Source: Shigella phage ShigP1
DNA length: 64,000 bases
Strand: one strand, 5' to 3'
Sequence record: PQ818763
Under the pieces are notes generated by a model, which did not search any database, was not told the DNA's origin, and saw only the letters and a program-made list of their open reading frames with translations. Positions within the stretch are counted from its first letter, which is position 1; every line of letters starts with the position of its first letter. This document shows positions 42,626-53,327 of the stretch, one piece after another. A program made the translations under genes and the position numbers.

Positions 42626-44470
42626 TTAGTGTGTATGCATCCAGTTAAGTCCAATCTGACAATCAGATGCCAGAGGACATTCCATATTCAGATACTCGCC
42701 AGCTTTCTTAACACAAAGCTCGGTGTGCTCTTTGAGTTTCTGTACATCATTACGGTTTACTGAGAATTGACCTTCATCGTGCATATCAATTACCTTAGCA
42801 CAACGAACCTTATCTTTCTCAATCCACTTGTTAAGGAACATCATAGCATATTTCATAACAACAGCACCAGCACATTGCAGGAGTGTGTTAAGGGCTTTAT
42901 GAACCATAACCTTACCAGTGGCATCCCGTCTCATTGTAATCTTACGACCATCAACTCCAATCAAGTATCCTTGAGCAGCTTTCTCTGTCATACGATCAAT
43001 GAGGATTGCAATACATGGGTTCTCTGCTAAGAAACGTGCTCGCATCACTGAACCTTCGTCAGCCCCACCACCTACAATTGAACCAAGCTTAGCATCACCA
43101 GCACCATAGTTGAATGCGTAGATAAACGTCTTAGCGTTGTCACGAGTAGGAAGACCAGCAAGTTTCTGGTTGTGGGAGTGGATATCACCTTCAAGGAGAA
43201 TATCACGATACATAATAGCAGAAGCTAAACCACGTTCTGCCAGAGCTTTCTTAGCTGGGTTGTTCTCTTCAATTGCCTCAGCAAGCATATCCCTACACTC
43301 TTTAATGAGGTAGTGAGCGAGCATACGAAGTTCAAGTCCAGAACCATCATACCCTAAGAATACTTCTTTACCAGCGGGTATGTAATATTTGTAAGCACCT
43401 ATAGGTTTATCTTTCTTCCCCGGCTTACCTTTCTCGTAAATTACGTTAGTACCTTTTCGTATATAACAACCATCAGGAACAACGTTAGTAATAACGAAAG
43501 GACGAGAGTGATCACTGTCTGAGTTATAGTCAGACTCAAACAGACTGCGACACTCGTGACCAAACAAACCACGGGAGGGAATATTAACCACGATACGATG
43601 TTTGAATCGAAAAGTCGGCGTAGCGCAGCTGTTAGCTTCTGCCGAAAGTTTACCATCTTCGCGTTCCTTTGCTATGAGTCCACTGATAAGACCTAGCCTG
43701 TGAGCCGCTACAACGCGTCTCTTAAGCAAACTTCCAACACTCCCTAGTTCACCCCCTAGCCCTTCTTCAAGAGTCTCCTCGAGGTTTGTAGGAGCTGTAG
43801 GCCACTTGTTTGATGTGGCTAATGCTTTCTTAATCTCATCAAACGTTACAGGATTACGGCGATTAGGGTTCAATCCCAAACCAAACACGTAAGCTTTCAT
43901 GTAGTTCTTAGTTTTAAACCTGAAGTGCTTTTCTAAGAACTTCTTAATATCAGCGTCAACCATCTCGGCTGTCTGCTTTTGCTTAGCATTGCCTCGCATC
44001 CAAGCAGTATACCATGCTTGGTATGTTCCATACTTTCTCATATCTTTCTTAATTTCGAAAGTATTCCAAGGCTTCTTAGATACGTTAAACTCTGGAGGAA
44101 GAAAGCCCTCATCCATAAGAGCTTCTTTAACTCGTGCATCCTTCGATGGGTCAAAGTCTACATATTCGACACAGGTGAAAGCTCCACCAATGTCTTCTCT
44201 CTTCAGTCCAACCCTATCACAATAAGCTTGAGGCCACTTCTGCAAAGCCCCTGACTTCTTAAATGGCTTCATGTAAGTAGAGCCATCTAATCTCATCTTA
44301 GGTAAGAGAGGAATCAACTCTCTGTCAATATTAACAATAATCTCTTTAAGGAGGTGAACATACCACCGAGCATTTCTTCGGTTGAAACTCACTCCGTGCT
44401 TTGCTTGCTTAGAGATTATATCAGCGACAGTCATCTCTGTCAAAAATGGAAGAGCGTCCGGGTTGCTCAC
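42626..44470 (-). CDS. DNA polymerase, family A, polymerase domain only
   Basis: Motif A LGYDGSGLELRMLAHY, motif B RDNAKTFIYAFNYGAG, motif C VIDMHDEGQF; no exonuclease motifs in this ORF. Confidence 0.85.
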   Translation of the reverse strand: MSNPDALPFLTEMTVADIISKQAKHGVSFNRRNARWYVHLLKEIIVNIDRELIPLLPKMRLDGSTYMKPFKKSGALQKWPQAYCDRVGLKREDIGGAFTCVEYVDFDPSKDARVKEALMDEGFLPPEFNVSKKPWNTFEIKKDMRKYGTYQAWYTAWMRGNAKQKQTAEMVDADIKKFLEKHFRFKTKNYMKAYVFGLGLNPNRRNPVTFDEIKKALATSNKWPTAPTNLEETLEEGLGGELGSVGSLLKRRVVAAHRLGLISGLIAKEREDGKLSAEANSCATPTFRFKHRIVVNIPSRGLFGHECRSLFESDYNSDSDHSRPFVITNVVPDGCYIRKGTNVIYEKGKPGKKDKPIGAYKYYIPAGKEVFLGYDGSGLELRMLAHYLIKECRDMLAEAIEENNPAKKALAERGLASAIMYRDILLEGDIHSHNQKLAGLPTRDNAKTFIYAFNYGAGDAKLGSIVGGGADEGSVMRARFLAENPCIAILIDRMTEKAAQGYLIGVDGRKITMRRDATGKVMVHKALNTLLQCAGAVVMKYAMMFLNKWIEKDKVRCAKVIDMHDEGQFSVNRNDVQKLKEHTELCVKKAGEYLNMECPLASDCQIGLNWMHTH

Positions 44471-44486
44471 TTTATACTCCTTTAAA

Positions 44487-44900
44487 TTATTGGTAAAGTA
44501 AATCTGTAAATGCTTGGTTATCTTCTACTACATCCAAGGATGTGGAATCAACAGCATATGTTCTCATTGCTGCATTTGTTTGTGCCCAAGTAGGTGGAGA
44601 ATAAGAAGACCTAACCTCACGAGGCTGCTCTCTGACTAGATGGGCCACAACCCTCTGATTAGCAACTTCTTCTCTTTCTCTAATAGCCCTCTGGATATAG
44701 GCCAGCTTCATGCCCCAAGCTTCTTCAAACTCTTGAGGATGCTTATCACTGATAACCACATACTGACGTTCAGGAATACCAGAGCGAATCTCTGATAATA
44801 ACTCATGGAATAAATCTAGTTCATGTTCAGTGAGATTCATTTCAATATCATCCCACTTAAGAACTAGGAAACGGTTTTGGTGTCTAGCTGGTAATGGCAT
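44487..44900 (-). CDS. Hypothetical protein
   Basis: ORF of 137 aa. Confidence 0.4.
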   Translation of the reverse strand: MPLPARHQNRFLVLKWDDIEMNLTEHELDLFHELLSEIRSGIPERQYVVISDKHPQEFEEAWGMKLAYIQRAIREREEVANQRVVAHLVREQPREVRSSYSPPTWAQTNAAMRTYAVDSTSLDVVEDNQAFTDLLYQ

Positions 44901-44903
44901 TCT

Positions 44904-45059
44904 ACTCCACCTCTACTTCAATGTAAGTTCTCTCGCCAACGTCATCTTTTAAGACCCATGCCTTGGCATCTTCTTCAGACTTAAAAGCTTTCACAACGCT
45001 GTATCCCCCTTCCCATTCATCACCGACCCAGCGCTGTCCTACGTAAATGTATTCTTTCA
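44904..45059 (-). CDS. Small hypothetical protein, 51 aa, absent from the ORF track
   Basis: Manual translation MKEYIYVGQRWVGDEWEGGYSVVKAFKSEEDAKAW... Confidence 0.3.
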
Positions 45060-51445: not shown

Positions 51446-51454
51446 TCTTATTCC

Positions 51455-52768
51455 TTAGTTATTTGTTTCCATGTCAAAAGAGATTCCACGACCCGCTTCA
51501 TCGGCAAACCGAACTGTACGGGTTTGAGGTTCTAATACTTCAGGGTTGTTAGCAATAAAGCGATCAGCGAGACTATCTCCCAAATCTTGTTCCATACCTT
51601 CATCAGTCCAGATAACACGAGAAGGGGCGTTGATATCACCAACAGCGAAACCCTGACCAGAGAACTGACGTGCGCTAACAGTTAAGCCGTTTGGTCGACC
51701 ACGAGAGGGTCTAGCCATCCATCGCTCCATAGAATCACTTGTAATACCAAGAGCTTCTTCAAAAGCTGTTCTACGAGTAGGGCTTTCTCTTCGTGACTCT
51801 TGTGCTCGACGCATTGCAGGGGCTACAAACACCCCTTCAATTGCATTGTGTCGGTTAGGTTCCTCTTCTCGACCAAGCAGATCACCACCCGTGTTAGTCG
51901 TTAAATTTGTCAACCCCTCAGACCAATACGCATGAATCTGACCAGAACCGTGAAGACTAGACATAATCTGAATCTCTTCATAAGGGATTCCAAAGAATCG
52001 ACTCATGTCTTGGTTAACACAATATAGAGCACTTGTTGTATCTTCAATAAGAGAAACCTGACCTAATCCATTGACTAGATGACTAACTGGCTGAGGTGTG
52101 GGAAGATATCGAGTTTGGGCCATGTATTGATGCGCAACTGCTGGAGAGGAAAATCTCAACACTTGTGAGTTAGGCCACTTCTTGTGAACATACCTGATTT
52201 CACGACTAGAGACAACCACTGGACAAGGGGAAGTCATAGCCAAATATCCGTGAGAAGTCATGAATAAGTTGTCAAGAGTCATCGCACCACGGCACATCAT
52301 AGGAAAATTATCCAATACCTCTTCAATAGAAGTAGGATAATTAAACATGAATTGGATACGAACCCCATTCCACTGAAACTCAATAATATCAGTGAATGTT
52401 AATTGAGAACCCCCAGCATAGGATTCGTTTGTAGCTTCAGCAAGAAGTGATGCATATTCAATATCTTGTGACTCTAGCCATTCCTTCACATTACTTTCAA
52501 TCTCCCGTCCAAGCTCTTGCCAACGATCAGTTGGGATGAAAGTGTTTTGAGTTCTTGGTGTTTGTCCTCTGACAATAAAGATATCAATGTCATGTGGAGC
52601 TATGTTATTAAGGACAGCATCACGAACAGCCCCACCAGTAATGATGGGACAGATACCATCTGGAATCAAGTTGTTGTTAATCAATTGTTCAATGAAGTGA
52701 CGACCAACAGTGATATCAGGTTGTTGAGCAACCTTATCTTCAATTTGGTTAATCGGGATAACAATCAT
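51455..52768 (-). CDS. Pol-beta-superfamily nucleotidyltransferase (CCA-adding / poly(A)-polymerase-like head)
   Basis: ITGGAVRDAVLNNIAPHDIDIF fits GG-x13-DxD with the GGxVRD form typical of CCA enzymes; start moved to the internal ATG. Confidence 0.5.
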   Translation of the reverse strand: MIVIPINQIEDKVAQQPDITVGRHFIEQLINNNLIPDGICPIITGGAVRDAVLNNIAPHDIDIFIVRGQTPRTQNTFIPTDRWQELGREIESNVKEWLESQDIEYASLLAEATNESYAGGSQLTFTDIIEFQWNGVRIQFMFNYPTSIEEVLDNFPMMCRGAMTLDNLFMTSHGYLAMTSPCPVVVSSREIRYVHKKWPNSQVLRFSSPAVAHQYMAQTRYLPTPQPVSHLVNGLGQVSLIEDTTSALYCVNQDMSRFFGIPYEEIQIMSSLHGSGQIHAYWSEGLTNLTTNTGGDLLGREEEPNRHNAIEGVFVAPAMRRAQESRRESPTRRTAFEEALGITSDSMERWMARPSRGRPNGLTVSARQFSGQGFAVGDINAPSRVIWTDEGMEQDLGDSLADRFIANNPEVLEPQTRTVRFADEAGRGISFDMETNN

Positions 52769-52769
52769 T

Positions 52770-53327
52770 TTACATTTTCCAATATAATGAAGGTGGGTCG
52801 TAAGGGTCAAATCCCGTGAGTTCACACAAGAAAAGATAAACCTTAACAGTTAAGTTAACGTCCTGTTCACAATAAGTAAACATATCTTCAGTGAAAGCAT
52901 CCCATGCTTCCTCTTGCTCACCGTAGTCACCTTTAAGTTCCTCTAAGAACTCACCCCATTGCTTCAAACCATGACCTCTTGGGCCACGTCTAGGGTCGCC
53001 TTTCGGATACTCAGGACTGTCACCAATACGGTCAGGTTTAAGATATCGACTAAGACATAAAGTGTCAAAGACGTTAAAATTATATTTAATCAAAGAAGGA
53101 TACATCTTTTTCAGAGCAGGTAAGTCGAAGTCAATAATATTATGACCCACTAGTACATCTGCTTCTGTAAGTTTACGAATCCCATCTTCAATTTGGTGAG
53201 GCCGATAGCCCCACCTTTCACCAGTTTCAACATCAAAGATATAAATACACCATACTTTAGTTATGTCATCGTACAGTGCATTACTCTCGATATCGAATGC
53301 AAACACTTTCTTCTTTTTCTTTACCAC
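52770..53327 (-). CDS. 3'-5' exonuclease (DnaQ-like, DEDDh), separate from the polymerase gene
   Basis: Exo I FAFDIES, Exo [13 protein letters not shown], Exo III YCEQDV. Confidence 0.7.

Follow-up and report, generated by a model that had tools for sequence, protein, structure and literature searches.

In phage T7, the family-A DNA polymerase gp5 carries its 3'-5' exonuclease and its polymerase on one polypeptide, and a host thioredoxin, which binds to a thioredoxin-binding domain (TBD) of 76 amino acids (aa), is used as a processivity factor. A split between the exonuclease (exo) and polymerase (pol) parts was reported for S-SBP1-like cyanophages by Czernecki et al. 2023 (NAR), where it was called the first such case in family-A polymerases. 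The record of phage phiEco32 (2008) describes the protein phi32_53 as one that "lacks 5'-3' and 3'-5' exonuclease domains", phi32_74 as one that "contains 3'-5' exonuclease domain" and phi32_65 as a thioredoxin, and this separation of exo and pol was described in print in 2023 (PMC9965538). For phages of the C3 morphotype it was proposed that the thioredoxin couples with the T7-like polymerase and improves its processivity (PMC7881722, 2021), and the idea of such a thioredoxin clamp was put forward in print by Corban and Ramsey 2021. Among T7-type phages, a thioredoxin of the phage's own has been studied experimentally in one case, Syn5; the protein was redox-active, the authors favoured activation of a reductase, and AlphaFold3 put host thioredoxins, not the phage one, on the TBD of the polymerase (10.1101/2025.10.05.680603). 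Here, a stretch of 64,000 nucleotides (nt) of Shigella phage ShigP1 (sequence record PQ818763), which as a whole is called the window in the following, was analyzed. It contains separate genes for the exonuclease and the polymerase and, between them, a gene for a thioredoxin.

The split arrangement is real and was already known, and the thioredoxin-processivity hypothesis had also been published. New are the observations that the polymerase has a conserved TBD-like element of 51 aa, including a T7-like arm, where T7 has its TBD of 76 aa, that this element is equally conserved in relatives in which no thioredoxin gene was found, and that relatives with an orthologous thioredoxin also encode ribonucleotide reductases.

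A nucleotide search with the 10.7-kb stretch from exo to pol yielded matches in 120 phage records, 62 of which covered at least 80% of its length. The records covering the stretch are nearly all from Kuravirus phages of E. coli (phiEco32, SU10, NJ01, Bas88-94 and others) and have 94-96% nt identity, and by this measure the window is a Kuravirus genome, i.e., that of a phiEco32/SU10-like podophage. From 40 to 56 kb of the window every gene is on the minus strand, and comparison with the annotations of SU10, Bas90 and phiEco32 revealed that this is the phiEco32-type middle-gene block for replication and nucleotide metabolism. It is the replication module of the Kuravirus middle genes, with a T7 gp5-type family-A DNA polymerase as the replicase. 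The coordinates of the features are collected in Table 1.

The polymerase gene was analyzed with respect to motifs, domain matches and fold. All three motifs of family-A polymerases were found, i.e., motif A is YDGSGLELR (residues 374-382, positions 43325-43351), motif B is RDNAKTFIYAFNYG (residues 443-456, positions 43103-43144), and motif C is MHDEG (residues 563-567, positions 42770-42784). They fit the T7-like family-A pattern, which is D.SG.ELR for motif A, R...K...Y..YG with Tyr at the third position for motif B, and HDE for motif C. The Pfam family DNA_pol_A covers only residues 361-611 (E 2.5e-23, 83 bits versus a cut-off of 34). The closest solved sequence relative is T7 gp5 (phmmer E 1e-32; hhalign probability 100%, E 2e-56), and chains of T7 gp5 were also the top fold matches in the PDB (Foldseek E 1.5e-25, TM-score 0.57) for an AlphaFold2 model that was built from 92 homologues and has a mean pLDDT (the model's per-residue confidence measure) of 92. 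The protein begins at the equivalent of T7 residue 206, and the 3'-5' exonuclease domain is not on this polypeptide. An AAGGAG Shine-Dalgarno site is present 7 nt upstream of the GTG start, and the orthologue of SU10 was detected by mass spectrometry as a protein of ~69 kDa (PMC4281155).

The best solved relative of the exonuclease is likewise T7 gp5, in this case residues 3-178. The motifs Exo I (FDIES, 53283-53297), Exo II (HNIIDFD, 53124-53144) and Exo III (YCEQD, 52860-52874) are present, and all catalytic residues of the DEDDy type are intact, i.e., D12/E14, D68 and Y152/D156. Exo III aligns to YNVQD of T7, and the H-x4-D of the DEDDh type was not found. Because Exo III has the form Y-x3-D, the exonuclease is of the DEDDy type. 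The proofreading domains of family-A polymerases are all DEDDy. Nearly all of the 65 homologues of the exonuclease are stand-alone proteins of 160-195 aa. The GTG start of the gene overlaps the stop of the primase/helicase gene (CCGTGGTAA), and this overlap is consistent with translational coupling.

The two proteins were then placed on full-length enzymes. On PHROG 17, which comprises full-length phage polymerases, exo matches the profile positions 667-826 and pol the positions 836-1233. On T7 gp5, exo covers residues 3-178 and pol residues 206-704 (hhalign for pol), and on P0116, an unsplit metagenomic relative of 618 aa, exo aligns to residues 5-154 and pol to residues 168-618 (BLASTP). In comparison with T7 gp5 and P0116 nothing is missing and nothing is duplicated. 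Judged from these alignments, exo and pol are the halves of one ancestral gene with the break at the exo/pol domain boundary. The Pfam, PHROG and T7 matches of the exonuclease, polymerase and thioredoxin genes are far beyond chance. A first-pass annotation, made from the letters of the window, had claimed a family-A polymerase split into two genes, with motifs A, B and C in 42626-44470 and the exonuclease in a separate 185-aa gene about 8 kb away; the split was fully borne out by the adjacent coordinates on PHROG 17, T7 gp5 and P0116, the motifs and both genes lie exactly at the positions given, on the minus strand, and 8299 nt separate the stop of exo from the start of pol. Only its label DEDDh for the exonuclease was wrong and has to be replaced by DEDDy.

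About 27 genes lie between exo and pol, and the same order, i.e., helicase, exo, intervening genes and pol, was also found in other phages. Pseudomonas phage TL has a gap of 1.9 kb, Proteus phage Privateer one of 5.6 kb and Aeromonas phage BUCT695 one of 6.2 kb, and in two metagenomic contigs exo and pol are separated by 4.1 and 3.2 kb. As the gene order is the same across lineages and the gaps vary, the split predates the divergence of Gordonclarkvirinae, Grimontviridae and Bruynoghevirus. The overlap of the exo start with the stop of the gp4-like helicase gene shows that the T7 order, gp4 followed by gp5, has been kept, and it seems that the remaining genes were inserted where the two domains meet.

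In several relatives an endonuclease gene interrupts pol and splits it once more, which results in an N-terminal part of ~450 aa and a C-terminal fragment of ~100 aa. Such twice-split loci are found in BUCT695 (16001-18470) and phage TL (18033-20339), and the proteins P0014-P0017 belong to this type. Some Kuravirus-like contigs are also twice-split (454-aa products, 88% identity). The pol gene of the window is intact.

Table 1. Features of the replication module in the window, with positions on the 64,000-nt stretch.
Feature	Position	Strand	Evidence or remark
Predicted stand-alone 3'-5' proofreading exonuclease subunit, DEDDy, 185 aa	52770..53327	-	Pfam DNA_pol_A_exo1 E 2e-8 (above cut-off); PHROG "DNA polymerase exonuclease subunit" E 4e-76
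Polymerase subunit, 614 aa (thumb, palm, fingers; no exo domain)	42626..44470	-	Pfam, PHROG and T7 gp5 matches
TBD-like thumb insertion, polymerase residues 57-107, 51 aa	44150..44302	-	hhalign versus T7 gp5; phmmer residues 63-135 on T7 295-363
Helical thumb insertion after H1, polymerase residues 137-215, ~80 aa	43826..44062	-	absent from T7 gp5 and unsplit P0116
Phage thioredoxin, 91 aa	48813..49088	-	Pfam Thioredoxin (PF00085) E 1.3e-13, 51 bits versus cut-off 23.5
Primase/helicase, T7 gp4-like, 596 aa	53321..55111	-	Pfam DnaB_C and Toprim_2; PHROG 239 E 1e-175
Nucleotidyltransferase, CCA-adding-enzyme-like, first intervening gene	51455..52825	-	PHROG 12715 E 1e-244; weak PolyA_pol head-domain match; SU10 and Bas90 annotations
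dCTP deaminase, intervening gene	50912..51445	-	size and position as SU10_073, Bas90_0069 and phi32_72, all annotated as dCTP deaminase
Dps/ferritin-like "DNA-binding protein"	49338..49949	-	Pfam Ferritin; NCBIfam Dps (below cut-off); PHROG 3636
HNH homing endonuclease, 159 aa	48344..48823	-	Pfam HNH_3 and PHROG 99; between thyX and trx
Flavin-dependent thymidylate synthase ThyX	47695..48351	-	Pfam Thy1 E 3e-43
PhoH-like ATPase, intervening gene	46047..46784	-	Pfam PhoH E 2e-56

The first-pass annotation had set an alignment with T7 gp5 as a test for the presence of a thioredoxin-binding loop in the polymerase and had named a polymerase without such an insertion as an observation that would speak against its idea about thioredoxin. 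In the hhalign alignment, residues 4-57 of the polymerase lie on T7 206-262, i.e., the region of helix H, residues 57-107 lie on T7 262-338, i.e., the TBD, and the sequence from residue 111 onward lies on helix H1, which spans residues 339-348 of T7 gp5 (PMC9198812). The 51-aa insertion is thus exactly at the site of the T7 TBD, between the thumb helices H and H1 and directly before the H1 equivalent, and with it the thioredoxin idea survives. In the AlphaFold2 model, the element is formed by a strand (residues 59-66), a helix (78-87) and another strand (98-104). Its C-terminal arm IGGAFTCVEYVDFDPS matches VAGAPYTPVEHVVFNPS of T7 and is an arm of the T7-like form GG(A/P)FT.VEY. The T7 TBD has two basic loops, and in the polymerase of the window a basic KPFKK patch resembles the lysine loop FKKPKNK of T7, a likeness for which the phmmer and hhalign alignments differ on the register. 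The length of the element is 48-53 aa in all 92 homologues, and P69, F70, G74, G96, P97, F98, F106 and D107 are invariant or nearly so, also in the LUZ24-like enzymes and in the unsplit P0116. By position and sequence, the TBD-like element is a shortened homologue of the T7 TBD at the identical position of the thumb, and it is probably ancestral to the clade.

Two cysteines of the polymerase are found in this region, i.e., Cys84 (~44219-44221) within the TBD-like element and Cys100 (~44171-44173), which directly follows the threonine equivalent to Thr327 of T7 (FTCVEY). Position 100 is alanine in most other family members. In T7, Thr327 lies in the TBD arm beside Cys32 of thioredoxin.

The polymerase has additional insertions. 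The segment 135-252, which encloses the helical thumb insertion after H1, varies in length from 70 to 123 aa across the family, and the position of this insertion fits the phiKMV-like thumb insertion of Czernecki et al. Two further variable insertions, residues 312-373 and 386-429, flank motif A.

The thioredoxin gene lies between exo and pol, exactly where the first-pass annotation had placed it, and its identity was verified by the Pfam match, the active site CAPC (49044-49055) and the cis-Pro loop RSIP (48921-48932). An AAGGA Shine-Dalgarno site is present ahead of the start, and the orthologue of SU10 was detected by mass spectrometry (PMC4281155). In comparison with E. coli TrxA, the ~20 N-terminal residues, i.e., strand 1 and helix 1, are absent, the active site is QCAPC versus WCGPC, and the protein differs at Trp28, Trp31, Gly33 and Gly74. 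CAPC, the cis-Pro loop and the equivalent of E. coli Gly92 are kept in 14 of 14 homologues. The score with TIGR01068 was 49.7 bits versus a cut-off of 96.8 and thus below the level of a full TrxA equivalog. An assignment as NrdH or glutaredoxin was also considered and rejected; the nearest NCBIfam matches were to classical thioredoxin, below the equivalog cut-offs. The protein has the sequence features of a redox-active protein, and its gene is probably a lineage-specific accessory gene.

To follow its distribution, a hidden Markov model (HMM) was built from the 14 phage homologues and E. coli TrxA. It detected the gene in the window, SU10, Bas90, Privateer and BUCT695, and it gave no match in TL, for which the whole genome was searched, or in three metagenomic relatives, which were searched up to 10 kb from pol. 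With tblastn, the Kuravirus-type thioredoxin was found only in enterobacterial C3 phages and in a few unrelated phages. The TBD-like element and the phage thioredoxin were thus not seen to follow the same distribution, and a specific link of the element to the phage thioredoxin gains no support. Privateer, which has an orthologous thioredoxin, and BUCT695, which has a thioredoxin-domain gene, both encode class I (NrdA/NrdB-type) and class III (NrdD) ribonucleotide reductases, and in BUCT695 the thioredoxin-domain gene is located directly after the class I reductase genes. The fully annotated Kuravirus Bas90 has no gene annotated as a reductase, a peroxiredoxin or a methionine sulfoxide reductase. 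A phage-encoded client of the thioredoxin in the Kuravirus genome was dismissed, as neither these proteins nor a PAPS reductase are present among the annotated genes; ThyX is flavin/NADPH-dependent.

Based on these results, the following reading is favoured. A gp5-type gene would have been broken at the exo/pol boundary in a distant ancestor, and exo would have stayed directly downstream of the primase/helicase gene, while pol would have come to lie 8.3 kb further along the same strand. The accessory genes for the nucleotidyltransferase, the dCTP deaminase, the Dps-like protein, the thioredoxin, the HNH endonuclease, ThyX and PhoH and many small open reading frames (ORFs) would have gathered between them. 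The exo and pol polypeptides would reassemble non-covalently to a proofreading replicase, and we infer such a holoenzyme with high confidence. The TBD-like element would be ancestral, and, if it binds any thioredoxin, host TrxA would be no less probable as its partner than the phage protein. The phage thioredoxin would mainly act in redox reactions, i.e., it would supply reductant to the phage's own NrdAB in Privateer-like relatives and to the host NrdAB in Kuraviruses, and a second role on the polymerase may exist. Taken as a whole, this reading is considered probable.

Instead of being a polymerase subunit, the exonuclease might work alone, e.g., in recombination or in the breakdown of host DNA, and the polymerase would then replicate without proofreading. 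The two genes are 8.3 kb apart, the association of their products is deduced from sequence and not from physical evidence, and family-A polymerases without exonuclease activity do occur. However, the exonuclease corresponds exactly to the N-terminal domain that the polymerase lacks relative to a gp5-type enzyme, with the cut at the domain boundary, it has been kept beside the primase/helicase in the gp4-gp5 order across at least four phage lineages, and its catalytic DEDDy residues are all intact. Furthermore, the stability of family-A polymerases depends on the exo domain according to Czernecki et al., and the parts of the split cyanophage enzyme reassembled when modelled. For other nuclease tasks a separate 5'-3' exonuclease is already present, and an exonuclease that works alone is regarded as improbable. 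Practically negligible is the chance that the split is an artefact of a frameshift, a misassembly or a pseudogene, or that it is mended by an intein or by trans-splicing. No supporting point was found for this; the stretch is covered to at least 80% by the 62 phage records mentioned above, both genes are present in every annotated one that was inspected (SU10, Bas90 and phiEco32), ~27 genes lie in between, exo and pol have each their own translation start, and the SU10 polymerase was detected with the ~69 kDa noted above. A repair by intein or trans-splicing was rejected, because the 185-aa exonuclease and the N-terminus of the polymerase abut on T7 gp5 and P0116 and leave no spare residues for intein halves.

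The role of the thioredoxin is less clear-cut, and here the observations that weigh against the favoured reading are found, in addition to the deduced association of exo and pol. The thioredoxin could be a dedicated third subunit that sits on the 51-aa TBD-like element and acts as the processivity factor of an exo/pol/thioredoxin replicase, so that host trxA would not be needed. The TBD-homologous insertion has kept its T7-like arm, which in T7 touches the active site of thioredoxin around Thr327, so that the binding of some thioredoxin is plausible. The thioredoxin itself keeps CxPC, the cis-Pro loop and the Gly92 equivalent, and these redox-competent features fit a binding role equally well, because T7 gp5 binds the same surface of thioredoxin. 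In Kuravirus and Privateer alike, the gene is part of the replication module and lies between exo and pol; it is conserved in all C3-morphotype enterobacterial phages, and pol, the thioredoxin and the Dps-like protein are among the few middle genes that are conserved in all five C3 phages (PMC4281155). Moreover, Kuraviruses keep the thioredoxin though neither a reductase of their own nor another obvious client is annotated in their genomes, as would be expected for a function unrelated to reductases. In contrast, LUZ24-like and metagenomic relatives in which no thioredoxin gene was found have conserved this insertion just as well, relatives with an orthologous thioredoxin carry NrdAB, the protein deviates from TrxA at the four residues given above and has no N-terminal strand and helix, and the modelling for Syn5 disfavoured such a role for a phage thioredoxin. 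Because of the equal conservation of the insertion and the reductases of the thioredoxin-bearing relatives, the role of a redox helper is more likely for the thioredoxin than that of a dedicated clamp subunit. The chance that it supplies reductant for deoxynucleotide synthesis via host NrdAB is put at about even, and a dedicated processivity subunit is thought to be rather unlikely. What remains is shared by a combination of both roles and by other roles, e.g., a functional connection to the Dps-like protein encoded nearby, in the handling of iron or in redox reactions. The hedge of the first-pass annotation, processivity or redox, was thus a fair one.

The neighbouring genes of the module were also inspected. 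The C-terminal tail of the primase/helicase is acidic and ends with ...GASPW, i.e., with a terminal Trp (53321-53420, minus strand). It resembles the tail of T7 gp4, which docks on the TBD of the polymerase. Upstream of the primase/helicase gene, beyond 55331 on the minus strand, a cluster of genes for ATP-grasp (RimK-like), amidoligase, COOH-NH2 ligase, glutamine amidotransferase and gamma-glutamyl cyclotransferase proteins is located, and this cluster is common to Kuravirus, Privateer, BUCT695 and LUZ24-like phages (8255-13525 in phage TL). The gene directly downstream of the exonuclease gene encodes the nucleotidyltransferase, which is annotated as related to class II CCA-adding enzymes. 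Its mechanical ORF overlaps the 3' end of exo by 56 nt, and, because the match to PHROG 12715 begins at residue 20, the true start is probably just past the exo stop.

The Dps-like gene is one small gene away from the thioredoxin gene, in the window as well as in Privateer, and it is conserved near the thioredoxin gene in C3-morphotype phages. On its other side, the thioredoxin gene is overlapped at its 3' end by 11 nt of the HNH endonuclease gene. This gene is not found at the thyX-trx site in SU10, Bas90 and phiEco32, where thyX and trx are adjacent, and ES17 and EP335 appear to carry it.

As a correct reading of a known phage replication module the results add little as such. The question of interest is whether the clamp of a polymerase can be a thioredoxin that the phage itself provides. 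If this were true, a three-piece replicase with the phage thioredoxin on the TBD-like element would be the first demonstrated virus-encoded thioredoxin clamp, and the phage would be freed from its dependence on host trxA. Kuraviruses are well suited for a test, they infect E. coli K-12, are present in the BASEL collection, and carry both the TBD-like element and the thioredoxin. In Kuravirus genomes, in contrast to their relatives and to Syn5, no ribonucleotide reductase that could account for the thioredoxin is annotated; as the thioredoxin has been kept nonetheless, the clamp idea is alive and can be tested in E. coli at low cost. For enzyme engineering, a T7-type polymerase that is split and naturally modular could be of practical interest as well.

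Compared with known systems, the closest solved relative is T7 gp5, which is nearest in sequence and in fold for both halves. Motif B is RDNAKTFIY.F.YGAG, with Tyr at the position of dideoxynucleotide discrimination, the order gp4 followed by gp5 is the same, the thumb has an insertion between H and H1 with a conserved C-terminal arm, and the helicase has an acidic tail that ends in an aromatic residue. In contrast to T7, the Kuravirus enzyme consists of two polypeptides instead of one, the TBD-like element has 51 instead of 76 aa, and three extra insertions are present (residues 137-215, 312-373 and 386-429). In addition, Kuraviruses encode their own truncated thioredoxin, whereas T7 uses the host protein. 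A phage-encoded thioredoxin is also found in Syn5, likewise a phage with a T7-type polymerase, and the same two hypotheses apply, reductase activation or processivity. However, Syn5 encodes its own ribonucleotide reductase, whereas none is annotated in Kuravirus genomes.

The LUZ24-like phages (Bruynoghevirus), with their "DNA polymerase part I / II / III", belong to the same polymerase clade (39-41% full-length identity) and have the same order of helicase, exo, small genes and pol as well as a TBD-like element of 49-51 aa. They differ in that the gap is 1.9 kb, pol is split again by an endonuclease VII gene, and no thioredoxin gene was found in the genome with the HMM. The phages of the phiEco32/SU10 type are nearly identical to the window. 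phiEco32 gp53 (DPOL_BPE32), gp74 (EXO74_BPE32) and gp65 and their orthologues in SU10, YF01, Bas88-94 and other Kuraviruses are the same genes in the same order with 94-99% identity, and the window deviates from them only locally, with an HNH endonuclease gene at the thyX-trx site and small ORFs that are not entirely the same. The PolA of S-SBP1-like phages also has the T7-like family-A exo and pol domains as separate products and a shortened TBD. In S-SBP1, however, the two genes are adjacent and the split is due to a recent +1 frameshift, whereas in Kuraviruses they are 8.3 kb and ~27 genes apart and the split is old and present in several phage families. The Kuravirus split is older and more dispersed than that of S-SBP1, yet it was already on record.

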